From Planctomycetota bacterium (GTDB lineage Bacteria; Planctomycetota; Planctomycetia; Planctomycetales; Planctomycetaceae), in NCBI GenBank assembly GCA_022600195.1, contig JAHZKX010000068.1, positions 2,184-66,183 on the forward strand: a stretch of DNA of 64,000 nt, written 5' to 3'. Shown here in pieces: positions 24,903 through 38,997 of the stretch. Both the position numbers and the translations under genes were made by a program. Position 1 is the stretch's first letter. Every line of letters starts with the position of its first letter. The notes under the pieces were generated by a model. That model had not been told where the DNA came from. It searched no databases and was given only the letters and a program-made list of their open reading frames with translations.

Positions 24903-26102
24903 TCACTTTTGTCGAATTAAGACAGGCCGACACCAGTTGACATGATCCTGAATATCCGCGTTTTTCCCGAAGTTCACTTTCAAAATCAGTTCCCGCGCAC
25001 CGCTGAGATCAATCCGCGGCACAAGAACCGTTTGTTGACTGGCTCCCTGAATGGCCTGCTGAAACACAATACGCTGGTCAACCAGAATCACGATTTCAGC
25101 ATCCCCTTTTCCCTGGGTGGTATCATCAATACCAACTTCTGTCTGAAATGCGGCATACTTTCCATCGAGCTGGTAGTGCAATTCAGAAGCGCTGTGCATT
25201 CCCAGCCCCGACACAAACTCTTTTCCACCGACTCTCAATGGCCCAGACAGAACATTCCTGTTTTGCTGCCAGTTCCATGCTTGAGAGAAATAAGGAGTAA
25301 ATTGATAATCAACCGGCTTGAGATCTGAAAGCGGAACAACCTGTCCTCCCAAAGGTGTAATGGAAACCAGACGCTTCAGACCAAAATGCAGTTCTGCACC
25401 AAACAAAGTTTTGGCAGTGATCTCATTCTTATCTAAAATAAGTGAAGAGACAGTCAATTGCGATCCGTTCGTCAGTCTTATTCGATAGCGTAACTGTTCG
25501 GGTTGTGGAAAATTGATCAACTCAGGGTTAATCGTAAAGAACCGAATTCCCTTTCGCGGGACCGAAGTTTCCCCACCTCTCGATTCAAAACGAAAAGTAC
25601 TCGCATCGAAGCCTAACAATTCCCCTTCCAGATTGTCGCCGTTGTTTAAAAAAAAGAGATCTGATTTCTGATCCTTTCTTGCGATTTTTTGAATGAGTTC
25701 TGTTCTCAGCTGGCGATTCGATGGCCATTGAAAACTGGCAGCCTGTATCGTTTCCAACGGAATTTTGAACCCCCCCGTTTCCGGACAGGAATTCAGACGC
25801 ACAAAGACAACGTCTTCCTCAGAACGGAGTAACTCCGCAAAAATACGATCATCGTTCGCCAGAATCACCAAACCTTCACGTGGTTGGGAGTGCAATAATT
25901 TTCCTGACTCGACACGAATTATTTCATCAGCAGGAAAAGTGCGCTTGCCGGAATCTGTCTGAAGCGTAAACTGATTCTGTTCAATTTGAATCAGCTTCCC
26001 CTGCACAACCTCGCCATCTGCAAGATAGAGCTCTGCCGCATTGATGAAATCATTCCAGGCGCTGAAACTGAAAATCAGACCGATGATCACTGTAAATCGC
26101 AT
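24903..26102 (-). CDS. Secreted NPCBM/NEW2 domain protein
   Basis: Signal peptide; C-terminal GLGMHS...FQTEVGIDD...LILKV..G..ADIQDHVNW. Confidence 0.8.
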   Translation of the reverse strand: MRFTVIIGLIFSFSAWNDFINAAELYLADGEVVQGKLIQIEQNQFTLQTDSGKRTFPADEIIRVESGKLLHSQPREGLVILANDDRIFAELLRSEEDVVFVRLNSCPETGGFKIPLETIQAASFQWPSNRQLRTELIQKIARKDQKSDLFFLNNGDNLEGELLGFDASTFRFESRGGETSVPRKGIRFFTINPELINFPQPEQLRYRIRLTNGSQLTVSSLILDKNEITAKTLFGAELHFGLKRLVSITPLGGQVVPLSDLKPVDYQFTPYFSQAWNWQQNRNVLSGPLRVGGKEFVSGLGMHSASELHYQLDGKYAAFQTEVGIDDTTQGKGDAEIVILVDQRIVFQQAIQGASQQTVLVPRIDLSGARELILKVNFGKNADIQDHVNWCRPVLIRQK

Positions 26103-26158
26103 GAGACACCTTGCAACGAAACTTCAAACATAATGAAACTTCAAACGATGAGAAAAAC

Positions 26159-27265
26159 TTAACGCTGAAAGATGGGAATATTATTGCGAGGAATTTGCAA
26201 AACGATACAGGCCATTGCCGTGCTATACTCGACACAGTTCGAGCTGTCGGGCCTCCAGCTGCCGCTGGTCATTTGACTGGAAACCAATTCATCCCGGATC
26301 GCGGGATACCAGCTTTCCCAATATTCAGCGCCGGCCTGCCACATAGCCTGGACTGCATAATATTGTCCGTAATAATAATGACTGCCACGAAAGTAACGCT
26401 GATTAGGCAGGTGGCGAGCAATGTAAGCAAGCCCGTCCTCGATTTCCTTTCCTTCATAAATCCCAGCGCTATATAAGGCAACGACACCCGCGGCTGACCT
26501 GGGAAATTCGCTTTTTCCCTGCCGAACAATTTGATACCGAAATCCACCATCCGCGTTCTGGCTATTCTTCACGTATTCAATACAACGGTCGATGACCTCT
26601 TTGGAAACAAAAATCCCACAATTCCGTGCTGCTCTGAGGGCCATAATCTGGCAGACGGTCACCGAGAGGTCGGCATCTTTACTCTCTGGTGTATACCGCC
26701 AGCCCCCTTTGGCGTTTTGTGACTTCACGATCATCTCAACCGCTTTTTCCAGCTTCGCTCGTACGTCCTTGCTACGCGTCATCCCATAAACTTCGGCAAG
26801 AAATAATGTTGCAAAACCATGTCCGTACATAGGACCATGAGAAATGCTCTCTGGTGCTATGATATACCCCGATGGTTTGCAGGAAGCGAGAATAAAATCT
26901 ACTGTCTTTTGTACCTGCTTTCCATACTTTCCTCTGCCTGGTGTATTTCCATCCGCTAGAAATGCCATCCCACATAAAGCAGTCACGGCCACATTTTGAT
27001 TGAAAGTGGATCCGGAGCCAAACGAGCCATCTGCGTGCTGTCTTTCTGCAAGATACTTGAGTCCACGGTCAACGGCAATGCGCGTGGGAGGCGTATAGTA
27101 TTTTTTACCTTGCGCATCGACAGCACGGTTGACTTCCCCCTGTGCCAGAAGAGAAGAACTCATCATGCCAGACATCAGCATCAAAACCAGAAGTGCGCTC
27201 TGCAAAGCGCGACTGAAAGCCTGAACCGGATTTGATTGGAACAATAGATATCTCAAAATAGCCAC
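26159..27265 (-). CDS. Prenyltransferase/squalene oxidase repeat (alpha/alpha barrel) protein
   Basis: QW-like repeats QHADGSF, QNAKGGW, QNADGGF, QMTSGSW; MYGHGFATL; DLSVT. Confidence 0.85.
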   Translation of the reverse strand: MAILRYLLFQSNPVQAFSRALQSALLVLMLMSGMMSSSLLAQGEVNRAVDAQGKKYYTPPTRIAVDRGLKYLAERQHADGSFGSGSTFNQNVAVTALCGMAFLADGNTPGRGKYGKQVQKTVDFILASCKPSGYIIAPESISHGPMYGHGFATLFLAEVYGMTRSKDVRAKLEKAVEMIVKSQNAKGGWRYTPESKDADLSVTVCQIMALRAARNCGIFVSKEVIDRCIEYVKNSQNADGGFRYQIVRQGKSEFPRSAAGVVALYSAGIYEGKEIEDGLAYIARHLPNQRYFRGSHYYYGQYYAVQAMWQAGAEYWESWYPAIRDELVSSQMTSGSWRPDSSNCVEYSTAMACIVLQIPRNNIPIFQR

Positions 27266-27365
27266 TTACCCTGAATAGAGTAGATTAGATCTCTACCTTG
27301 CATTGTACGTGATGTGCAGGTAATGGAAAGCTGTAGGATGGAAAAATTGCTTCCAGCCAACACGA

Positions 27366-27725
27366 TCAGGGCCGAATCACTTCAGGGTATTTTGACTTAC
27401 CACCCGATAATTTCGGTACGGGATGCAAGGTTTGTCCCGGTCTTGGTTTTAAAAAAGGACGAACTCGAATGGATTGCTCAACCGCTAATCGCGACTCGGT
27501 CCGCTGGGTTCCAAATTCGCGGGGACGCACTACCCCGGGTCCTAAAGCACTGGATGGCAGCGGATCTTCCAACTCCATCATTTTCTTTTCTTCGATTTTC
27601 TGCCCGCGTGTCATGGCTTGACGTCCCGGAAAAACACGGGGGATCCGCGTATTGTAGGCATTAAAGCACCCCGAGCAAACAGGGACCAATAATGCGAGCA
27701 GGATCAATCGAAACAGAAGATTCAT
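27366..27725 (-). CDS. Hypothetical lipoprotein
   Basis: Hydrophobic N terminus with lipobox CSGC; co-oriented upstream of the prenyltransferase-like gene. Confidence 0.6.
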   Translation of the reverse strand: MNLLFRLILLALLVPVCSGCFNAYNTRIPRVFPGRQAMTRGQKIEEKKMMELEDPLPSSALGPGVVRPREFGTQRTESRLAVEQSIRVRPFLKPRPGQTLHPVPKLSGGKSKYPEVIRP

Positions 27726-28074
27726 GAACAGCTATACTCAGCTTGAAATAACGACCTGGCACCACATTCTGAAGAAGATCAGACCAGATTCTGTAATAAG
27801 CCGCGGACCTTAACAGATTACCTGTTCAGCGAACAGATTGATTTTTCATCGAGCCGAAAAAGAAACAATGCTTTAACCCCCTCGTATTTCAGAGCTTAGG
27901 CCTCTACAATGTCTCTAATTCTTTCTGGAAACAGGAAAACAGAGGTTTTCAGAGGGTATCAATGTCCTGACGCTGGAAGTAAAGCGGTTTTCATAATAGC
28001 ATCCTGACTTAGCGAGACCATTTGCTGCTCCATCCGGAATTTGTATTGAAATTGTAAGGATTATTTCAAATCTT

Positions 28075-28890
28075 ATGTCAACTCCTCCAAAAGTTTGTGT
28101 CCTGCGGGCTCCTGGAACCAACTGCGATATCGAAACCGCACATGCATTTGATCTCTGTGGAGCCCAGTCCACCAGAATTCATCTTCTGAAATTATTGGAA
28201 AGCCCAGAACAACTGAATGACTATCAGATTCTCTGCCTGCCCGGCGGTTTCAGTTACGGTGATGATGTGGGAGCAGGCGTGATTTTTGCCAGCCATCTAC
28301 AAGGACAACTCGCCGATGTGATTGGAAATTTCCTGGCTGCTGATAAGTTGGTATTGGGAATTTGTAACGGATTTCAGGTGCTTCTCAAAGCAGGAATTCT
28401 CCCCGGTGGTGCCACAGGCTGGCCTCCAAAACCAGATCAAAGTCGAGATGCCACATTGACGTGGAATACCAATGGGAAATACACATCACTCTGGGTACGA
28501 CTGGGAGTACTTGCTCCACAAAATGTGTTCTTGAAAGAGATAAACCAGATTGAACTACCGATCGCACATGCTGAGGGTCGGATTGCAGTGAGTGATGCAA
28601 CGGTGATTGATGGTTGGAAAGCGAATCAACAAATCGCCATGTGTTATCGTGAAGACGATGAAGCAGTAACGACTCTTCAGGAAGAAATCCTGGACTATCC
28701 GATGAACCCTAACGGCTCTGCTTATAACATCGCTGCCCTGGGTGATCCTTCTGGACGCGTGCTCGGCCTGATGCCTCACCCCGAGCGTTTTCTGTTTGCC
28801 ACACAACACCCACAATGGACGCGTTTGGGATTAGAAGGTGAAGGCGCCGGCATACAAATCTTCCGGAACGCCGTCAATTATTTCAAATAG
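28075..28890 (+). CDS. purQ: Phosphoribosylformylglycinamidine synthase subunit PurQ
   Basis: APGTNCD, PGGFSYGDD, LGICNGFQ, IAHAEG, GLMPHPER. Confidence 0.93.
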   Translation: MSTPPKVCVLRAPGTNCDIETAHAFDLCGAQSTRIHLLKLLESPEQLNDYQILCLPGGFSYGDDVGAGVIFASHLQGQLADVIGNFLAADKLVLGICNGFQVLLKAGILPGGATGWPPKPDQSRDATLTWNTNGKYTSLWVRLGVLAPQNVFLKEINQIELPIAHAEGRIAVSDATVIDGWKANQQIAMCYREDDEAVTTLQEEILDYPMNPNGSAYNIAALGDPSGRVLGLMPHPERFLFATQHPQWTRLGLEGEGAGIQIFRNAVNYFK

Positions 28891-28920
28891 AAACATCAAG
28901 CAGCGTCCCTTCAACAAGAA

Positions 28921-28960
28921 AAGGCCCATCTGTCAAAACGACAAATGGGCCTTATTTTTT
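28921..28960. terminator. Intrinsic terminator between convergent purQ and oxidoreductase genes
   Basis: AAGGCCCAT...ATGGGCCTT stem followed by a T tract and preceded by an A tract. Confidence 0.8.
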
Positions 28961-28981
28961 GAACTGTTTCAACAACGAATT

Positions 28982-30439
28982 TTAGAGTTTCGCTGTTGAT
29001 GGAACCGCAAACGGCTCACGATACTCGCGTGAGAGTTTGGGATTGGCAGTCGAAGCCATTCCACCGGTGAAGACTTCTGTCTTGCTGTCCAGTGATAACT
29101 TTGGTCCCATACTGATCGCTGTACTCTCTGCATCAATTTTATTATTTTTCAGATGGTCACGGAAACGACCGAGTGTTTCCAGAGCTTCTGCATCTCCTGA
29201 CAACTTGGCATTCAAATCCTGAACGGGCATTTGTTCGCCAAGTTCATAAGAAATGTTACCCAGATGACAAAGTGCACTGGAGATGTGGCCTTCTTCGATA
29301 TCTGCATTCAAATCGCTAATATTTCGACTGCGAACTGCATCCACGAAGTTGGCAAAGTGATCTGCTGAACCAGAAAACTTCTTGATCAGTTTTCCATCAT
29401 TATCGAATGCAGAAGCACTATTGTAGCTGGGAATGACCACATAACCTTTGGAACCGTAGAAGATCACTCCTACTTTAGCGCCCCGATAGGCTTCTGTTTC
29501 CAAACCACGCACTTCAAACACCAGACGCTTATCACCAAACTGGTGAATGCTGACCTGCGTATTGGCGACATCACCCGCATCAACATAACCCAGTCGACCA
29601 CCATAGGCTTGAACGCTGTCACCAACATTATCAACGCCTAAGCCCCAACGAGCCACATCCATCTGATGGATGCCCTGGTTCCCCAGGTCCCCGTTACCCG
29701 TAGGTGTTTGCCAATGCCAGTCGTAATGGAAACGTGAACGAGTCAACGGTGCCATCGGTGCAGGTCCGAGCCAGAGATCGTAATCAACGCTGGCGGGCAC
29801 ATCGTAGTTCCCTTTGGGACCAATTGACTTTCGTCGTTTGTAACAGGTACCACGGGCCAGTTTCACTTCACCAATGCCACCTGCTTTGATAAAGGCAATC
29901 GCATCGATCAGACCGGGTTGAGAACGGCACTGTGTTCCTGTTTGAACAATTTTCTTGTACTTGCGAGCGGCTTCGACTATGCGTCGTCCTTCACTCACAT
30001 TATGACTTACCGGTTTTTCGCAATAAACATCTTTACCAGCCTGAATCGCCCAGATGGCACCCAAAGCGTGCCAATGGTTGGGAGTCGCAATACTGACGAC
30101 ATCGATTTTCTGATCGTCGAATGCTTTTCGCAGGTCTTTATAATAGGCAGGTTTCTTATTTGTCTTTTTGTAAACGTTTCCGACACCCTTTTTCATCCCG
30201 ACGCTTTCATCAGGATCGACAATTGCTACAACTTCTGTATCTTTTCGACCAGTGAAGGCACTCAGGTGAGATTGACCACGGCCATTCACACCCAGTAAGG
30301 CAACACGCAACTTTTCATTTGGACTGCTGGACTGTTTTTCCGCAGCAGAGAGATGAGGAACAGAAGCGCCCAGAGCGGCCGCACTGGCTGCTGCAAACAT
30401 CGATTGTTCAAGAAATTCGCGACGTGAATGTTGAGACAT
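28982..30439 (-). CDS. Tat-exported Gfo/Idh/MocA family oxidoreductase
   Basis: SRREFL Tat motif, GVNGRG, ATPNHWH, YCEKP, GDLGNQGIH. Probable start ATG 30439. Confidence 0.92.
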   Translation of the reverse strand: MSQHSRREFLEQSMFAAASAAALGASVPHLSAAEKQSSSPNEKLRVALLGVNGRGQSHLSAFTGRKDTEVVAIVDPDESVGMKKGVGNVYKKTNKKPAYYKDLRKAFDDQKIDVVSIATPNHWHALGAIWAIQAGKDVYCEKPVSHNVSEGRRIVEAARKYKKIVQTGTQCRSQPGLIDAIAFIKAGGIGEVKLARGTCYKRRKSIGPKGNYDVPASVDYDLWLGPAPMAPLTRSRFHYDWHWQTPTGNGDLGNQGIHQMDVARWGLGVDNVGDSVQAYGGRLGYVDAGDVANTQVSIHQFGDKRLVFEVRGLETEAYRGAKVGVIFYGSKGYVVIPSYNSASAFDNDGKLIKKFSGSADHFANFVDAVRSRNISDLNADIEEGHISSALCHLGNISYELGEQMPVQDLNAKLSGDAEALETLGRFRDHLKNNKIDAESTAISMGPKLSLDSKTEVFTGGMASTANPKLSREYREPFAVPSTAKL

Positions 30440-30734
30440 CTTCTTTTTTCTCCTCAATGGAATGTCAATGGAAGGATTGCACTGTGCACTATCGGGTGGG
30501 ATCGCAGAAAAGCCCTGCAAATTGATGAATGAGTAGTCAGATCCTTCAACGACTACAAATTTGCAGTTTGACTTTGCCAAACGGTCATTATTAGTAAGCT
30601 CTCTTTGTCAAAGTCTAACCGATAAAAGGACGGATATTCAAGGTTGAACCTGAAATCAGCAACAATTCAGGTGTATTTTACTCTGGAATCGCTTTCGGTT
30701 TCGCAACTCATGAAATCCGCATTTCTGTCACTCT

Positions 30735-31448
30735 CTACGGCTTTTTCGTAGAAAGTAATGGTAGAAAACTTTCCAATCCGACTTCTTCCCGACTGGCAAA
30801 AGGTTCACCATAACCACGATGAATCGTCCAACCCCAATAGCGTGCCCGGTCTTTGATATCATCTAAAACCGTGGGATGTTCAGTCGATTTACCTGTAAGC
30901 ATCTGGCTTTCATAACAACGAATGGCCTGCATTTTCAGGTCGATCTGGTCAGAAATATCGAAAACGAAGCTTGGTTTAGGGTGGTTTCGCAGATGAATGC
31001 TCCAGAAATAATAAATCTGTGGAGGCCAATATGGTTCGCCAGGCATATCGGTTTTGCTGAGTTTGGCCCAAAATCGAGCCGCATCCGTCAGATGACTGGC
31101 AGCCACATGATCGGGATGAACATCTTCCCAATAGGGGGCCAAAATAATTTTGGGTCGTTGAAGTCGGAATACCACTGCCAACTCCCGTCGTGCATCCAAA
31201 CTGGATTCCAGGCTCCGATTCTTCAATCCCAAAGATTGACGCCAATCCAGATCCAATACTTCCGTGGCAGCAGCCGTCTCTTTAACTCGGATTTCCGGAC
31301 TGCCGTAAGGCGTTGGTTCACCGTTGGTTAATTCTATGACTCCTACACGGAGCCCCTGCTGTTTACAGGCCAGTATGGTCCCTCCAATACTGATCTCAGC
31401 ATCATCGGGATGAGGTGCTACTATAAGTATATCTAAATCAGAATCCAC
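30735..31448 (-). CDS. bshB1: PIG-L family deacetylase, BshB1-like
   Basis: APHPDDAE, HPDH, DLKMQAIRCYESQ, YGEPF. Confidence 0.75.
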   Translation of the reverse strand: MDSDLDILIVAPHPDDAEISIGGTILACKQQGLRVGVIELTNGEPTPYGSPEIRVKETAAATEVLDLDWRQSLGLKNRSLESSLDARRELAVVFRLQRPKIILAPYWEDVHPDHVAASHLTDAARFWAKLSKTDMPGEPYWPPQIYYFWSIHLRNHPKPSFVFDISDQIDLKMQAIRCYESQMLTGKSTEHPTVLDDIKDRARYWGWTIHRGYGEPFASREEVGLESFLPLLSTKKP

Positions 31449-32230: not shown

Positions 32231-35200
32231 ATGTTTGATTTCTCGCCGCGGTTCTTTGTATCTGGAATGCTCATCGCGTGTGTTGCAGCCAGTAGTACCA
32301 CGACACTGGCAGAGAAGTCATCCGATCAAAAGAAACAGGTGGTTGACGTTGATTTCAATCGAGACATCCGTCCGATCCTGTCCAAAAACTGCTTTCACTG
32401 CCACGGGCCAGATGAAGGCACCCGCGAAGCCGACCTGCGACTCGACCTGAGAACCGCTGCCACAGCAAAACTGGATAGTGAAACGCATGCGATTATTCCC
32501 AAGCACGTAAATCAAAGTGAACTTTATCGCCGCATTATTTCGACAGATGAATCTGAAGTCATGCCCCCTCCCGATGTCGGAGACAAATTAACAGACTCTC
32601 AAATCACATTAATCAAAGCCTGGATCGAACAGGGTGCACCGTATGCACGTCATTGGTCCTTTGTTCCGCCACAGCGTCCCAAACGTCCAACAGTCAAACT
32701 AAATAAATGGGCCGCCAACGAAATCGATTATTTTGTGCTGGCAGAGTTAGAACAGGTGGGTCTTACACCGAACCCTAAGGCAGACCGTTACACACTGATC
32801 CGTCGCCTGAGTTTCGATCTGCGCGGGTTACCTCCTACGCTGGCTGAAGTCGATCAGTTTATCAACGATTCCTCTCCCAATGCGTATGAAAAACTAGTCG
32901 ATCGTTTTCTGGCCGATCCCGCTTATGGCGAACGCTGGGCGCGTAAATGGCTGGATTTGGCGCGTTATGCAGACTCCAAAGGTTACGGCTCTGATCCACT
33001 GCGAATGACCATCTGGCGTTATCGTGACTGGGTGATCTCCGCGTTCAATCAGAACAAACCCTTCGATCAATTTACACTTGAGCAATTAGCGGGAGATCTC
33101 CTGCCGAATGCGACACTTGAACAAAAAGTGGCAACGGCGTTTCATCGCAATACCATGACTAATACGGAAGGTGGCACTGACGACGAAGAATTCCGAACCG
33201 CTGCCATCACGGATCGGGTGGATACGACTATCCAGGTCTGGATGGGACTAACCATGGGTTGTGCTAAATGCCATACCCATAAATATGACCCCATCTCGCA
33301 AAAAGAATACTATCAGCTTTATGCCTACTTCAATCAGACCGCAGACAACGATCAACCGACGGATGCCCCCACCATCATTGCCCCCACGCCTTCCATGCTG
33401 CAGGAAACCAAGCGGATCGATTCGGAAATCGTGGCGCTCAATCAGAAGTTGCAAACCCACACTAAAGAACTCGCGCTTGCTCAAGAAAAGTGGGAATCGA
33501 CATTGCATGCGAAGCCAGCGTGGAAGATTCTGAACCCATTGACCGTTAAGTCGACATCCAAAACAACGAAATTTCAAACTCTAAAAGATGGATCTATTCT
33601 GGCGACAGGCCCCGCTGCCAGAGAAAACTATATCATTGAGGCAGAACTCGAAATTCCGGCATTCAAAGCATTGCGTTTGGAAGCGCTCCCCGATGCGGGC
33701 CTGCCCTCAAAAGGGCCGGGGCGTGCCAAGGATGGCAATTTTGTATTATCACAGATCAAAGTTGACAGCATGCCTTTCAAAACGATCGATACGCCAGTGA
33801 AAGGGCAGTTTCTGCGAGTTGAACATCAGGGTAATAAAAAACAGATTCTGTCACTGGCAGAAGTCCAGGTATTCCAGGCCGACAAAAACATATCCAGCCA
33901 GGGAGCCGCTTCCCAATCGAGCACCACGCATTCCGGCACCGCGAACCTGGCCATCGATGGAAACACAAACGGTCATTTTTTTGATGCCAAATCGACCACA
34001 CATACCAATACCGAAGCAAAACCCTGGTGGGAATTGAACCTGAAAAAGGAAACTCCCGTCGATCGAATTGCGATCTGGAACCGAACTGATGGAGCCGGCG
34101 AGAGGTTATCCAACTTCAAAGTCAGCCTGCTCGACGCCAAACGAAACGTAGTCTGGCAAACGATTGTAGCAGCACCCCCTGCTCCGTCCCGCACACTGTC
34201 GGTCTCGCGTCGCAAAACAATACCCTTGAAACGCGCCATTGCCTCCTTCTCTCAAACCGGCTTCCCCGTGAAGGCGGCCATTGATCCCGCTGATAAGAAC
34301 CAGAAAGGCTGGGGCGTTGGTCCTCAACTCGGCAAAACACACAGCGCTTACTTCATTCCTGAAAACACGACTCCTGTGAAATCGGGAAAACAACGACTGA
34401 TTATCACTTTGTCTCACAATTATAAAGACCCACAATATGCATTGGGGCATTTTCGACTTTCGTACACGACGGAAACAAAACTCGAACCGCGTCTCAAAGT
34501 TTCTGATGATCTTCTCGCAATCGTCGATACCAAATCAGCAGATCGAACACCGGCTCAACAGAAAAAACTGGCCGCCTACTATCGTACGATTGCACCGGCA
34601 CTCAAACCAACGCGGGATCAAATCGCGCAGCTCAAAAAATCAAAACCTGTGTTTCCACAACTTCCCATCATGCAGGAACTGCCTGCGGACAAACAACGTA
34701 AAACCCACATTATGGTACGGGGCAGCTTCCTGACCCCTGGCGACATTGTCGAACCCGCGCTACTGAGCGCCTTTAATCCCCCGCCAGAAAAAACACCCTC
34801 AAATCGCATTGCCGTCGCCAGGTGGCTGACCTCGCCAGAAAACCCATTAACGGCCCGCGTCAACGTGAACCGCCTCTGGTCACAATTATTTGGCGCGGGG
34901 CTCGTGATTACCGAGGAGGATTTTGGTACGCAAGGCGAACTACCCAGTCATCCTGAATTACTCGACTGGCTGGCGACTGAATTCATCCGGAACGGTTGGG
35001 ACATGAAAGACCTGCTCAAAACCATGGTGATGTCAAATACCTATCAACAGTCATCAGTGACGAAACCCGAACACATCCAGAAAGACCCTCGAAACCGACT
35101 CCTCTCGCGTGGTTCTCGCTATCGACTGGAAGCAGAAATGATTCGTGATCAGGCACTGGTTATCAGTGGGTTGCTCAATCAAAAAATCGGCGGTCCTTCA

Positions 35201-35743
35201 GTTTACCCGGTACAACCTGACGGAATCTGGCGAGCCGCGTTTAATGGACAGCGCACCTGGGCCACCAGTAAAAATGCCGACCGTTTCCGTAGAGGACTCT
35301 ATACTTTCTGGCGACGAACTGTGCCCTACCCTTCGATGGCAACCTTCGATGCACCGAGCCGTGAAATCTGTACTATCAGACGCATCAGTACCAATACGCC
35401 ACTACAAGCCATGATTACGTTAAACGACCCGGTATTTATCGAAATCTCTCAGGCATTGGGGCGTCGCATTTTTAAAGAAGGCGGAAAAACACCGCGTTCC
35501 CGTATTGAATACGGTTTGAAACTAAGTCTGATTCGCCCTGCTCAGCCTGAGCAAATTGAACCGTTACTGAAACTTTATGAATCAGAATTGAAATACTATC
35601 AATCGCATCCCGAGGAAGCAGCGAAGCTCGTTGAGAATAAATTAAGCCCGCTTCCCGCTGAATACAAAAAATCGGAACTGGCAGCCTGGACCGTCATCGC
35701 CAATGTTCTGCTGAATATGGATGGCGTTCTTACAAAAGGATAA
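32231..35743 (+). CDS. Planctomycete cytochrome C + DUF1549 (PSCyt2) + beta-sandwich/F-type lectin + DUF1553 (PSD1) protein
   Basis: FNRDIRPILSKNCFHCHG, GERWARKWLDLARYADS, GCAKCHTHKYDPI, NPLTARVNVNR, TPLQA; internal AIDGN...THT...WW...NRTD. Confidence 0.92.
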   Translation: MFDFSPRFFVSGMLIACVAASSTTTLAEKSSDQKKQVVDVDFNRDIRPILSKNCFHCHGPDEGTREADLRLDLRTAATAKLDSETHAIIPKHVNQSELYRRIISTDESEVMPPPDVGDKLTDSQITLIKAWIEQGAPYARHWSFVPPQRPKRPTVKLNKWAANEIDYFVLAELEQVGLTPNPKADRYTLIRRLSFDLRGLPPTLAEVDQFINDSSPNAYEKLVDRFLADPAYGERWARKWLDLARYADSKGYGSDPLRMTIWRYRDWVISAFNQNKPFDQFTLEQLAGDLLPNATLEQKVATAFHRNTMTNTEGGTDDEEFRTAAITDRVDTTIQVWMGLTMGCAKCHTHKYDPISQKEYYQLYAYFNQTADNDQPTDAPTIIAPTPSMLQETKRIDSEIVALNQKLQTHTKELALAQEKWESTLHAKPAWKILNPLTVKSTSKTTKFQTLKDGSILATGPAARENYIIEAELEIPAFKALRLEALPDAGLPSKGPGRAKDGNFVLSQIKVDSMPFKTIDTPVKGQFLRVEHQGNKKQILSLAEVQVFQADKNISSQGAASQSSTTHSGTANLAIDGNTNGHFFDAKSTTHTNTEAKPWWELNLKKETPVDRIAIWNRTDGAGERLSNFKVSLLDAKRNVVWQTIVAAPPAPSRTLSVSRRKTIPLKRAIASFSQTGFPVKAAIDPADKNQKGWGVGPQLGKTHSAYFIPENTTPVKSGKQRLIITLSHNYKDPQYALGHFRLSYTTETKLEPRLKVSDDLLAIVDTKSADRTPAQQKKLAAYYRTIAPALKPTRDQIAQLKKSKPVFPQLPIMQELPADKQRKTHIMVRGSFLTPGDIVEPALLSAFNPPPEKTPSNRIAVARWLTSPENPLTARVNVNRLWSQLFGAGLVITEEDFGTQGELPSHPELLDWLATEFIRNGWDMKDLLKTMVMSNTYQQSSVTKPEHIQKDPRNRLLSRGSRYRLEAEMIRDQALVISGLLNQKIGGPSVYPVQPDGIWRAAFNGQRTWATSKNADRFRRGLYTFWRRTVPYPSMATFDAPSREICTIRRISTNTPLQAMITLNDPVFIEISQALGRRIFKEGGKTPRSRIEYGLKLSLIRPAQPEQIEPLLKLYESELKYYQSHPEEAAKLVENKLSPLPAEYKKSELAAWTVIANVLLNMDGVLTKG

Positions 35744-35747
35744 AGTC

Positions 35748-37199
35748 ATGAATCTGAAACAAAAACAACTTCAGGCAGTCACCCGACGTCAATTTTTAGC
35801 GAAAGGCTCCACTGGCATTGGTGCGCTTGCTTTGAGTTCACTGCTGGCTGATAACCAAAGTGTTTCTGCCAACTCACCGAAGAGTACGGAAACTCAAAAG
35901 TTCCGTCTTCCCACAAAAGCAAAGAGCGTGATCTTCCTGCATATGGCAGGTTCGCCTCCCCAGCAGGAACTGTTTGACTATAAACCCGAGTTAGTCAAAC
36001 GTAACATGCAACCTTGTCCTGATTCGTTTCTGAAAGGACGTGGCTTCCCCTTCATCAAAGGGCATCCCAAAATGCTGGGAACGCCGTACAAATTCAAACA
36101 GTGCGGTCAATCAGGCACCTGGATGAGTGAACTCTTACCGAATTTTCAGAAGGTGGCAGATGATGTTACGGTCATCAATTCGATGCACACCGATCAATTC
36201 AATCATGCGCCTGCTCAACTATTACTCTATACTGGTGCACCTCGATTTGGTGGTGCATCAATGGGTTCCTGGATCACTTACGGTCTGGGCTCTGAAAACA
36301 AGAATCTGCCAGGGTATATGGTCCTGTTAAGTGGTGGCAGTGATCCCAGTGGCGGCAAAAGTCTCTGGGGCAGTGGATTCCTGCCTTCGGTCTACCAAGG
36401 TGTGCAATGCCGTACGACGGGGGACCCCATACTGTATGTCACTAACCCCAAAGGCATTAATCGAGAAGTTCGGCGACGCAGTCTTGACGCGTTGAAATCG
36501 CTCAATGAATTCGAACTCAAACAGTTTGGTAATCCGGAAACACTGACCCGCATCAATCAGTACGAGCTTGCCTTCCGCATGCAGATGTCAGTCCCGGAAG
36601 CGGTCGCCTTGAAAAGTGAAACCAAACAGACACACGAACTCTATGGCACTACCGGAGAAACACCCTCGTTCGCTAACAACTGTCTGTTGGCCCGCCGCAT
36701 GGTGGAACGGGGTGTGCGGTTTATTCAACTGTTCGATTACGGCTGGGACATGCATGGCACAGGAAAGGGCAATGACTTGATCACAGCTGTCCCCAATAAA
36801 GCCAAAATGATCGATCAACCGTTGTATGCTCTCATCACAGACCTCAAGCAACGAGGCATGCTCGATGAAACATTGATTGTCTGGAGCGGCGAGTTTGGCA
36901 GAACGTCCATGAACGAAGAACGTAACGGTTCGAAATTCTTAGGCCGCGATCATCATCCCCACTGCTATTCCATCTGGATGGCAGGTGGCGGCATTAAAGG
37001 GGGCATGACTTACGGCAAAACGGACGAACTCGGATACTTCATCGCGGAAAAGAAAACCAGCGTCCGCGATCTGCAAAGCACGATCTTGCACCTCACCGGC
37101 CTCAACCCGCGAAAACTGAAGGTCCCCTACCAGGGTCTGGACCAAAGACTCATCGGCCCTGCTGATGAAGATCATCTGCTGAAGGACATTCTGGCTTGA
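35748..37199 (+). CDS. DUF1501 domain protein (Tat signal)
   Basis: TRRQFL, IFLHMAGSP, CLLARRMVERGVRF, GEFGRT, GRDHHP. Start ATG 35748. Confidence 0.93.
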   Translation: MNLKQKQLQAVTRRQFLAKGSTGIGALALSSLLADNQSVSANSPKSTETQKFRLPTKAKSVIFLHMAGSPPQQELFDYKPELVKRNMQPCPDSFLKGRGFPFIKGHPKMLGTPYKFKQCGQSGTWMSELLPNFQKVADDVTVINSMHTDQFNHAPAQLLLYTGAPRFGGASMGSWITYGLGSENKNLPGYMVLLSGGSDPSGGKSLWGSGFLPSVYQGVQCRTTGDPILYVTNPKGINREVRRRSLDALKSLNEFELKQFGNPETLTRINQYELAFRMQMSVPEAVALKSETKQTHELYGTTGETPSFANNCLLARRMVERGVRFIQLFDYGWDMHGTGKGNDLITAVPNKAKMIDQPLYALITDLKQRGMLDETLIVWSGEFGRTSMNEERNGSKFLGRDHHPHCYSIWMAGGGIKGGMTYGKTDELGYFIAEKKTSVRDLQSTILHLTGLNPRKLKVPYQGLDQRLIGPADEDHLLKDILA

Positions 37200-37479: not shown

Positions 37480-38997
37480 ATGATGAATTCATTACGAACC
37501 TTGACCATCGCCTTCCTGGTGTTTTGCTGGCCTTCAGTTGATGCTCCGGCAGCCGAACAGCCCAATATCCTGATGATCATGGTTGACGATCTGCGGCCGA
37601 TGCTGGGTTGCTACGGGGATCCGCGTGCACAGACTCCGAATATTGATCGGCTCGCTTCGCGTGGAGTCGTCTTTGAACGAGCGTATTGCCAATACGCCAA
37701 ATGTGGGCCTTCGCGGCTTTCGATGATGACCGGTTTGCGACCTGATTCTATCGGTGTCTTCAACCATCGCAATGACTCAGCAACAAAATTCCGTGACCGC
37801 CAACCCGCTATCGTTTCGATGGCACGCTGGTTGAAGGATCAGGGGTACCACACACGGGGTTTAGGAAAGATCTACCACGACGGCTGGGATCTGGCATCAG
37901 ACTGGTCGAAGCCCGCGTTTCCTGGTCGAGAGAAGGAGATGTTGGAGATCTTCGACCAGAAGCATCCGGATGGACCGTCAATCATTGCCGATCGGTTTGC
38001 ATGTCCGGTGATGCAGGGACCGGACGTTCCAGACAATCACTTCTTTGCCGGCCGTATGACAGACGAAGCCATTCGTATCATTCACAAACAGGATCGCGAA
38101 AAACCAATGTTTCTCGCAGTGGGATATCGTCGCCCGCATCTTCCCTTCGTTGCCCCCAGGCGTTACTACGACCTCCACCAGCCCGACCATTCGTGGCTCG
38201 CCAAAAATCCGAATCCACCACACAATTCGCCTGTGATGGCATGGTTTAATTCGGACGGCTATGTGGACGCAGCGCGCCGTGCAAAGCTGAAGATGCCGAT
38301 TCCACCCAGCCTCGCTGAGGGCCCCTTATGGAACGGATACGAAATGCGAAGTTATTTGGGAGCCCCCAATTACGGTGTCATCGATCAAAGGCTGCAACTT
38401 AATCTCCTGCATGCCTATGCAGCATGTGTGAGCTACGTCGATACACAAATCGGTAAGCTGCTGGACGGTCTTGAGAAGACAAATCGAAGTTCAAACACCA
38501 TCATCGTCCTTTGTTCGGATCATGGCTGGCATCTCGGCGAGCAGAGTGCCTGGAGCAAAATGACAAACTTTGAAATTGCGACGCGCGTACCATTAATTAT
38601 TGTCGCTCCTGGTATAAAATCCAGCCGCACACGCAACCTGGCTGAACTGGTGGATCTCTACCCAACACTCTGTGATTTGACCGGAGTCAAAAAGCCACCG
38701 CACCTTGCAGGCGAAAGTCTGGTACCGACATTGCGACAGCCTGAGCAGCAAACAGAGTCCACAGCACTCAGTCAACACACACGTTTCGGTGAGAAATTTA
38801 TGGGGCGTGCGCTCCGCACAGACCGTCACCGCTTTGTCGTCTGGTTCGAAAAGAAAAGTGGCCGCATCGTTGAACGCGAACTCTACGATCACCAAACCGA
38901 CCCTCTGGAAACATGTAACATCGCCGGAGATCCAGATCAGGCTGATCGCATCTTAATTCTGGAAGCGCAACTTCGGATGTCATTCGGATTGCGGTGA
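37480..38997 (+). CDS. Cys-type sulfatase (iduronate-2-sulfatase-like)
   Basis: VDDLRP, CGPSR (CxPxR), GKIYH, RPHLPF, SDHGWHLGE. Confidence 0.92.
   Translation: MMNSLRTLTIAFLVFCWPSVDAPAAEQPNILMIMVDDLRPMLGCYGDPRAQTPNIDRLASRGVVFERAYCQYAKCGPSRLSMMTGLRPDSIGVFNHRNDSATKFRDRQPAIVSMARWLKDQGYHTRGLGKIYHDGWDLASDWSKPAFPGREKEMLEIFDQKHPDGPSIIADRFACPVMQGPDVPDNHFFAGRMTDEAIRIIHKQDREKPMFLAVGYRRPHLPFVAPRRYYDLHQPDHSWLAKNPNPPHNSPVMAWFNSDGYVDAARRAKLKMPIPPSLAEGPLWNGYEMRSYLGAPNYGVIDQRLQLNLLHAYAACVSYVDTQIGKLLDGLEKTNRSSNTIIVLCSDHGWHLGEQSAWSKMTNFEIATRVPLIIVAPGIKSSRTRNLAELVDLYPTLCDLTGVKKPPHLAGESLVPTLRQPEQQTESTALSQHTRFGEKFMGRALRTDRHRFVVWFEKKSGRIVERELYDHQTDPLETCNIAGDPDQADRILILEAQLRMSFGLR

Follow-up and report, generated by a model that had tools for sequence, protein, structure and literature searches.

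A circularly permuted F-type lectin domain nested in a PSCyt1/PSCyt2/PSD1 haem protein of a planctomycete

Proteins that combine the domains PSCyt1, PSCyt2 (DUF1549) and PSD1 (DUF1553) and are encoded next to a DUF1501 gene were described from Planctomycetes, Verrucomicrobia and Lentisphaerae by Kamneva et al. (2012; PMC3542564), who reported that they sometimes carry a Laminin_G_3 or F5_F8_type_C domain and suggested a sugar-binding role for these domains. The PSCyt/PSD1 proteins and their DUF1501 partners make up an unexplained gene family that is among the largest in Planctomycetota and Verrucomicrobiota. We analysed one such gene, P0001, in a 64,000-nucleotide stretch (the window) of contig JAHZKX010000068.1 from the Planctomycetota bacterium assembly GCA_022600195.1. 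P0001 matches the described module in its domain set, its haem motifs and its neighboring DUF1501 gene of the twin-arginine translocation (Tat) type. We found that its F5_F8_type_C unit, at residues 516-664 (33776-34222), is a true F-type lectin domain (FTLD; CAZy CBM47), that is, a fucose lectin domain, and that this domain is circularly permuted and nested within another domain, none of which is named by Kamneva et al.

The solved lectins SpX-1 and SpX-3 of Streptococcus pneumoniae SP2159 (2j1r-2j1v, 2j22) and S. mitis lectinolysin (3le0, 3lei, 4gwi) belong to the same family (profile E values of 1e-32 to 1e-37), and share with the P0001 domain an identical H-x26-R-x-D-x4-R spacing and calcium motif as well as a body that superposes at 1.1-2.0 Å with 31-42% identity. 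Unlike these lectins, the P0001 domain has its last two strands moved to the front and lies in a loop of another beta-sandwich instead of being appended, and its carrier is a haem protein, whereas SpX and lectinolysin are carried by a glycoside hydrolase or a cytolysin. The eel agglutinin AAA (1k12) and striped bass MsaFBP32 (3cqo) are also homologous and have both the sugar and the calcium motif; they are soluble lectins of canonical strand order, and the P0001 domain aligns across the tandem junction of MsaFBP32, which is a signature of permutation. FTLDs occur in Planctomycetes according to the FTLD census of Bishnoi et al. (2015), as cited in PMC5712786. Our literature search for an F-type lectin with DUF1553, or for a permuted FTLD, returned nothing relevant, although a co-occurrence with PSCyt/DUF1553 may stand in that census. 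The P0001 domain is a clean natural case of circular permutation combined with domain-in-domain insertion.

The F-type lectin domain of P0001

Residues 514-670 of P0001, compared with the PDB by phmmer, matched every solved F-type lectin and no other noteworthy entry, with E values of 6.5e-24 for 3cqo, 5.4e-19 for 2j1r, 8e-18 for 4gwi and 5.4e-10 for 1k12, the lectinolysin entries 4gwi and 3le0 both lying at about 1e-17. A profile built from 81 orthologous lectin domains was then compared with all six solved FTLD sequence groups and gave 2.7e-49 for 3cqo, 3.5e-37 for 3le0, 1.8e-32 for 2j1r and 1.4e-16 for 1k12. The His...Arg-x-Asp-x4-Arg stretch aligned without gaps to the same residues of SpX-1 (2j1r) and MsaFBP32 (3cqo). 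A sequence-only reading of this DNA had claimed such a domain at 33790-34200, which lies within the boundaries placed here. That the motif arose by chance was ruled out, as it stands inside a domain homologous to all solved FTLDs.

The same reading had noted an H-x26-R-x-D-x4-R motif together with the strings ASQSST, AIDGN and LSLAEVQV, and the translation of 32231-35743 contained each of them where it had been placed. Numbered from the ATG, the motif residues are encoded by cat (H591, 34001-34003), cga (R618, 34082-34084), gat (D620, 34088-34090) and agg (R625, 34103-34105), and the spacer between H591 and R618 is exactly 26 residues long (TNTEAKPWWELNLKKETPVDRIAIWN). Both AASQSST (residues 559-565) and AIDGN (574-578) lie upstream of H591, and LSLAEVQV (540-547) precedes both. 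Reviews give the fucose motif as HX24RXDX4(R/K) and the calcium motif as h2DGx (PMC12221842). The actual His-Arg spacing in the solved sequences 2j1r and 3cqo is 26, as in P0001, versus the printed 24, and AIDGN satisfies h2DGx.

These residues were conserved to a high degree among 97 full-length homologues of P0001 that were 48-90% identical to it. H591, R618 and R625 were present in all 97, always with a His-to-Arg spacing of 26, and D620 was present in 96. Of the calcium motif, A574, D576 and G577 were invariant and N578 was found in 92 of the 97; Q562, S564, P598, W600 and N617 in the body and R529, G534 and L540-V545 in the strands that precede it were likewise invariant. The loop that joins the Asp to the last Arg varied in length, with four residues in 27 homologues (the Gimesia clade), five in 65 and seven in the other five. 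Across 80 loci from different species genomes, H-x26-R...R was found in every one, the Asp in 78, and a five-residue loop in 49. The domain alignment contained 17 invariant columns out of 149, and the His/Arg/Arg triad was among them.

Modelling with AlphaFold, which the sequence-only reading had proposed, was carried out on the whole protein and on the isolated domain with AlphaFold2 (AF2). The full-length model had a mean predicted local distance difference test score (pLDDT) of 84, with the middle region mostly at 80-93, and contained beta strands in the lectin and in both of the segments that flank it; strands 436-515, in the N-terminal flanking segment, reached a pLDDT of about 90. Its best matches in the PDB were the fucose-binding modules 2j1r/2j1t and fucose-bound lectinolysin 3lei (probability 1.00, template modelling (TM) score by target 0.72-0.75). 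The root-mean-square deviation (rmsd) reported by Foldseek for this model, about 14 Å, came from an alignment that ran past the lectin, a matter that was settled by the isolated-domain model. The 149-residue domain alone was predicted as one compact unit (pLDDT 91.3, predicted TM score (pTM) 0.88), and it superposed on Lewis-Y-bound SpX-1 (2j1t_A) with an rmsd of 1.1 Å over 106 columns at 42% identity, and on fucose-bound 3lei with an rmsd of 1.6 Å. Against 2j1t, 2j1r, 2j22 and 3lei together, the probability was 1.00, the TM score by target 0.73-0.75 and the rmsd 1.1-2.0 Å. In these models the domain has the F-type jelly-roll fold.

Pfam recognized P0001 by PSCyt1 (3.2e-18), PSCyt2 (2.7e-90), PSD1 (5.7e-98) and F5_F8_type_C_2 (1.2e-12). 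The first three, at 66.5, 302.3 and 327.6 bits in one protein, were above the Pfam thresholds of 22, 29.8 and 28.5 bits, respectively. The discoidin-type models reached only the lectin body (PF22633, residues 574-647; PF00754, residues 560-647). Because these body-only models miss the relocated strands, the lectin unit receives no label beyond that of a generic discoidin domain (F5_F8_type_C or F5_F8_type_C_2). The parts of P0001 and the genes that follow it are listed in Table 1.

Table 1. Coordinates of P0001, its domains and motifs, and the two genes downstream (window positions)
Feature	Position	Strand	Details
PSCyt1/PSCyt2/PSD1 protein gene P0001	32231..35743	+	1170 aa, from the list of open reading frames and translation; carries the lectin domain
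PSCyt1 cytochrome c domain	32390..32575	+	residues 54-115; haem motif C54-x-x-C57-H58; Pfam
PSCyt2/DUF1549 domain	32720..33343	+	residues 164-371; second CxxCH, C344-A-K-C347-H348; Pfam
Host beta-sandwich, N-terminal half	33521..33775	+	residues 431-515; ...ALRLEALPD...GPGRAKDGNFVLSQIKV
FTLD tail, placed first	33776..33883	+	residues 516-551; GQFLRVEHQGNKKQILSLAEVQVF; equivalent to the two closing strands of canonical F-type lectins
FTLD body	33884..34222	+	residues 552-664; corresponds to the N-terminal ~110 residues of canonical F-type lectins, with sugar and calcium sites
Calcium-binding motif h2DGx	33950..33964	+	A574-I-D576-G577-N578; from the sequence
Fucose-recognition motif	34001..34105	+	H591-x26-R618-T-D620-GAGE-R625; from the sequence
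Host beta-sandwich, C-terminal half	34226..34474	+	residues 666-748; ...AIASFSQTGFPV...GW...LGHFRLSYT
PSD1/DUF1553 domain	34802..35575	+	residues 858-1115; Pfam 5.7e-98
DUF1501 partner gene, sulfatase/phosphatase fold	35721..37199	+	Pfam DUF1501 3.1e-142
S1 sulfatase	37480..38997	+	Pfam Sulfatase 1.3e-48; not a conserved part of the module

Circular permutation and insertion into a host beta-sandwich

P0001 departs from the canonical strand order of FTLDs, in which the body comes first and the strands GRYV...LxLxEVEV come last, in that this tail precedes the body; the domain is therefore filed as a circularly permuted variant and not as a standard FTLD. When the profile was aligned with SpX-1 (2j1r), its positions 33-144 fell on residues 13-122 and its positions 8-34 on residues 124-150. 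With lectinolysin (3le0), positions 34-132 fell on residues 8-105 and positions 7-35 on residues 119-147. The two SpX-1 blocks, in swapped order, cover the whole canonical chain, which places the break between canonical residues 122 and 124. On MsaFBP32 (3cqo) the tail of the profile aligned with residues 263-288, and one alignment crossed from the end of the first lectin domain into the second. The canonical order was found by homologue search in other bacteria, in which arrays open with a body and close with a tail at the C-terminus of the protein, and stand-alone units have a body followed by a tail some 40 residues on. The TM scores of 0.73-0.75 obtained with the isolated domain are at the expected ceiling for a sequential aligner that can use the body alone, and so fit a permutation again. 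We conclude that the circular permutation, which the sequence-only reading had proposed, is real.

Tandem FTLD arrays are common in related bacteria, and a fragment cut from one would show a tail with a body behind it. The strand LSLAEVQV might accordingly be the remnant of a decayed upstream lectin copy, or part of the host sandwich, in which case the body would be incomplete and there would be no true permutation. We regard this explanation as exceedingly improbable. No second tail follows the body of P0001, since the C-terminal half of the host already begins at residue 666, and the tail and body are conserved as one block, the invariant tail residues included. The unit folds compactly on its own in the AF2 model, with its tail strands at a pLDDT of 95-96. 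Furthermore, a tail-first FTLD with an intact motif was found immediately behind a helical linker, and away from any other beta domain, in four PSCyt/PSD1 proteins of about 1000 residues from other Planctomycetota genomes; as there is no other beta domain in these four proteins, the tail must pack on the body that follows it. The tandem-array remnant was ruled out by the missing second tail, the isolated-domain fold and these helix-flanked units.

The sequence-only reading had also placed the lectin unit inside another beta-sandwich of the DUF1549/DUF1553 cytochrome. The host sandwich separates the DUF1549 part of P0001 from its DUF1553 part, and we evaluated this claim by searching hidden Markov models (HMMs) of the two flanks (residues 431-515 and 666-748) against all open reading frames (ORFs) of the window's own genome. 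This genome encodes 81 PSD1/PSCyt2 paralogues, of which 11 were matched by the HMM of the N-terminal half and 10 by that of the C-terminal half. The two halves adjoined one another in nine paralogues, with about 7-40 residues between the matched stretches (the profile ends being incompletely covered), and P0001 was the only protein in which they were split by about 150 residues, which are the FTLD. The FTLD is inserted in a loop of a family-specific beta-sandwich, and the nesting is real.

The host beta-sandwich is common to only 10 to 11 of the 81 paralogues, which makes the middle region of these proteins highly modular. The tail-first units that follow a helical linker without a host sandwich (L089-L092, in genomes G003, G043, G183 and G190) represent a second insertion context within the family. 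Beyond P0001, the FTLD HMM matched a single ORF of the genome, encoding a 1726-aa protein (G000:C24:35658-40835, minus strand; the same as L004:1659-6836, minus strand) that contains ThuA, a tail-first FTLD-like domain at residues ~403-528, a GDSL lipase, DUF7133, a cupredoxin and a cytochrome c. The sugar motif of this FTLD-like domain is degenerate (H-x28-R-S-G-x3-R). Three PSCyt/PSD1 paralogues of 933-1011 aa (L005:3168-5966, L006:3206-6238 and L007:3124-5979, all on the minus strand) carry, immediately behind the coiled coil, a discoidin-like domain that opens with tail-like strands (e.g. AVRMRIEAT...SLYEFEVW) and lacks the fucose motif. It seems that tail-first order is general for the discoidin-type inserts of the PSCyt/PSD1 family.

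The permuted unit may most plausibly have arisen by register-shifted excision out of a tandem FTLD array, which would have produced a cassette with the closing jelly-roll strands (GRxVRxE...LSLAEVxV) first and the sugar-binding body next. This cassette is inserted in a loop of the host sandwich in P0001, and it is reused in at least two positions of PSCyt/PSD1 proteins. The permuted lectin cassette recurs both at different places within this one family and in unrelated proteins.

Probable ligand and role of the lectin

The domain retains an intact His/Arg/Arg pocket and calcium site, and therefore most probably binds alpha-L-fucose at a non-reducing terminus, or a sugar that shares its axial 4-OH and 6-deoxy geometry. 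The sequence-only reading had proposed that P0001 recognizes fucose or fucoidan. Its first part, recognition of an L-fucose-type ligand, is strongly supported by the homology to fucose-bound structures, the calcium motif, the invariance of the triad across two phyla and the 1.1 Å fit of the model; its second part, recognition of fucoidan or sulfated fucans, found no support, as set out below. Taken as a whole, we consider it likely that the permuted, loop-inserted FTLD of P0001 binds fucose in its intact pocket and serves ligand targeting for one paralogue pair. The lectin would be the targeting module of one of the 81 paralogues and of its translationally coupled, Tat-exported DUF1501 partner, and would bring a terminal alpha-L-fucoside or look-alike sugar to the complex of the haem protein and DUF1501. 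It would be the lectin, then, that sets the substrate of both proteins. As a conserved subfamily whose fucose-binding pocket is of textbook form, these proteins offer a concrete candidate ligand for biochemistry on the PSCyt/PSD1-DUF1501 system.

Several points weigh against this explanation. Calling the lectin a targeting module for the PSCyt/PSD1-DUF1501 pair names a role and not a chemistry. The position of H591, R618 and R625 in one pocket is a prediction, drawn only from the alignment with the SpX-1 triad and the 1.1 Å fit. Most homologues outside Gimesia have a five-residue loop between the Asp and the last Arg instead of the four-residue one. Searches of the genome, which is 99.99% complete, found no GH29 (PF01120), GH95 (PF14498) or fucose isomerase; its single FucU (FucU/RbsD) homologue sits among housekeeping genes, and none of the known routes downstream of fucose is visible. 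No fucosidase or fucanase was found among the neighbours of P0001 in the window, or in the genome with PF01120 and PF14498, GH107, GH141 and GH168 not having been searched for.

It is possible that the fold and pocket have been kept but that the ligand is no fucoside, being instead L-galactose, 3-O-methyl-galactose, a 6-deoxy sugar of the cell's own envelope or a non-carbohydrate, and that the domain anchors or orients the protein without selecting a substrate. The lack of GH29, GH95 and fucose isomerase keeps this alternative of another sugar or an own-envelope glycan alive, and it would also be in keeping with the loop lengths of x4, x5 and x7 that occur across the family. Variants of the motif change specificity, according to work cited in PMC12221842. 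However, in P0001 itself the loop is the canonical x4 and no motif residue is missing, its body is 42% identical to that of SpX-1 with an rmsd of 1.1 Å, and the invariance of the triad across two phyla argues for the ancestral type of ligand. We therefore consider a ligand other than a fucoside rather unlikely, and favor binding of a terminal alpha-L-fucoside or a close look-alike.

A further alternative is that the lectin-bearing DUF1553 gene, the DUF1501 gene and the sulfatase gene downstream form a polysaccharide-utilisation locus that acts on fucoidan or another sulfated fucan. All three genes lie near one another in the same orientation, and planctomycetes are known degraders of sulfated algal polysaccharides. 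However, the sulfatase is missing from the syntenic locus of Gimesia aquarii, where DUF1559 genes stand in its place, it was not found in two other related loci that we examined, and of 80 related loci only 3 had a sulfatase in their flanks, so that a link between the sulfatase and the lectin was not upheld. Among solved structures the sulfatase is closest to 6hhm (5.6e-76) and human iduronate-2-sulfatase (1.8e-64), which we take to be members of subfamily S1_7 and not of the subfamilies known for fucoidan. No glycoside hydrolase recurred near the lectin gene in the 80 loci, and the genome, as stated, gave no match for GH29 or GH95. In addition, FTLDs grip the free axial 4-OH of terminal fucose, which in fucoidan is often sulfated or linked. 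A fucoidan locus is thus very unlikely, and it was rejected after comparison with the 3 and the 80 related loci, annotation of the window, typing of the sulfatase against the PDB and the genome search for GH29, GH95, fucose isomerase and FucU. The sulfatase also has a C-terminal domain of the SGSH_C type.

An extension of the targeting role that we preferred above is that the FTLD-bearing PSCyt/PSD1 protein and DUF1501 are a haem-dependent enzyme system of the periplasm or cell surface, which would capture and chemically process fucosylated glycans without a classical fucosidase. On this proposal the 81 pairs of the genome would be the Planctomycete/Verrucomicrobia counterpart of polysaccharide-utilisation systems, with an exchangeable, loop-inserted lectin (FTLD, discoidin or LamG) setting the substrate of each. 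Such a haem-dependent route would need no classical fucosidase, and in that respect it would agree with the lack of GH29 and GH95 in the genome. We put it forward as a speculation that is more probably wrong than right by a wide measure.

The DUF1501 partner, neighboring genes and distribution

The two haem c motifs of P0001 are kept in all the homologues compared: C54, C57, H58 and M111 of PSCyt1 and C344, C347 and H348 of PSCyt2 were invariant in the 97 homologues, and haem attachment at both CxxCH motifs is predicted. The N-terminus of P0001 is hydrophobic and reads as a putative signal peptide, suggesting that the protein is exported.

The DUF1501 gene was the sole widely conserved neighbor across the related loci. 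It was found downstream on the same strand in 44 of the 63 loci with enough sequence, and also in the G. aquarii locus and the two other loci compared one by one. Two start codons are candidates in the window, one at 35721, which gives a 23-nt overlap with the lectin gene, and a more likely one at 35748, which lies 4 nt past the stop of P0001 and puts the sequence TRRQFL at residues 12-17, where a Tat signal would be expected. The match of DUF1501 to the Tat-signal model TIGR01409 was weak (E value of 0.018; 15.4 bits, below the cut-off of 16.7 bits), and its putative Tat signal is read from the TRRQFL motif near the N-terminus.

The architecture of P0001 is widespread and no one-off. The closest homologues were those of Gimesia aquarii (73%) and G. 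algae (69%), which places the window in the genome of a Gimesia, a marine planctomycete. The architecture recurs in no fewer than 491 species genomes, which belong to Planctomycetota (Gimesia, Schlesneria, Gemmataceae, Isosphaeraceae and Pirellulaceae) and Verrucomicrobiota (Pedosphaera and Limisphaerales). With regard to the nested arrangement, the full 318-residue query was covered in all but a few of the best 80 loci. Of 201 genomes sampled evenly across the phylum, nine had the nested form in full or nearly in full (10 matches, two of them in G174), and one genome (G200) had a partial match that began inside the N-terminal half of the host (query positions 74-297). Seven more of the 201 genomes had the FTLD part only, in ORFs of 954-1030 aa, and the four of these that we checked were PSCyt/PSD1 proteins.

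Two of the matching contigs bear the record titles 'uncultured Bifidobacterium sp.' (L066) and 'Akkermansia muciniphila' metagenome-assembled genome (L075); the label of L066 is probably a binning or labelling error.

The neighbors of the lectin gene in the window are unrelated enzymes. The upstream genes at 24903-31448 are syntenic with those of Gimesia aquarii (L001), and the two genomes diverge downstream of DUF1501. The products of the syntenic upstream genes are an NPCBM-domain protein, a prenyltransferase/cyclase-like protein, GATase_5, a Gfo/Idh/MocA oxidoreductase and a PIG-L deacetylase.

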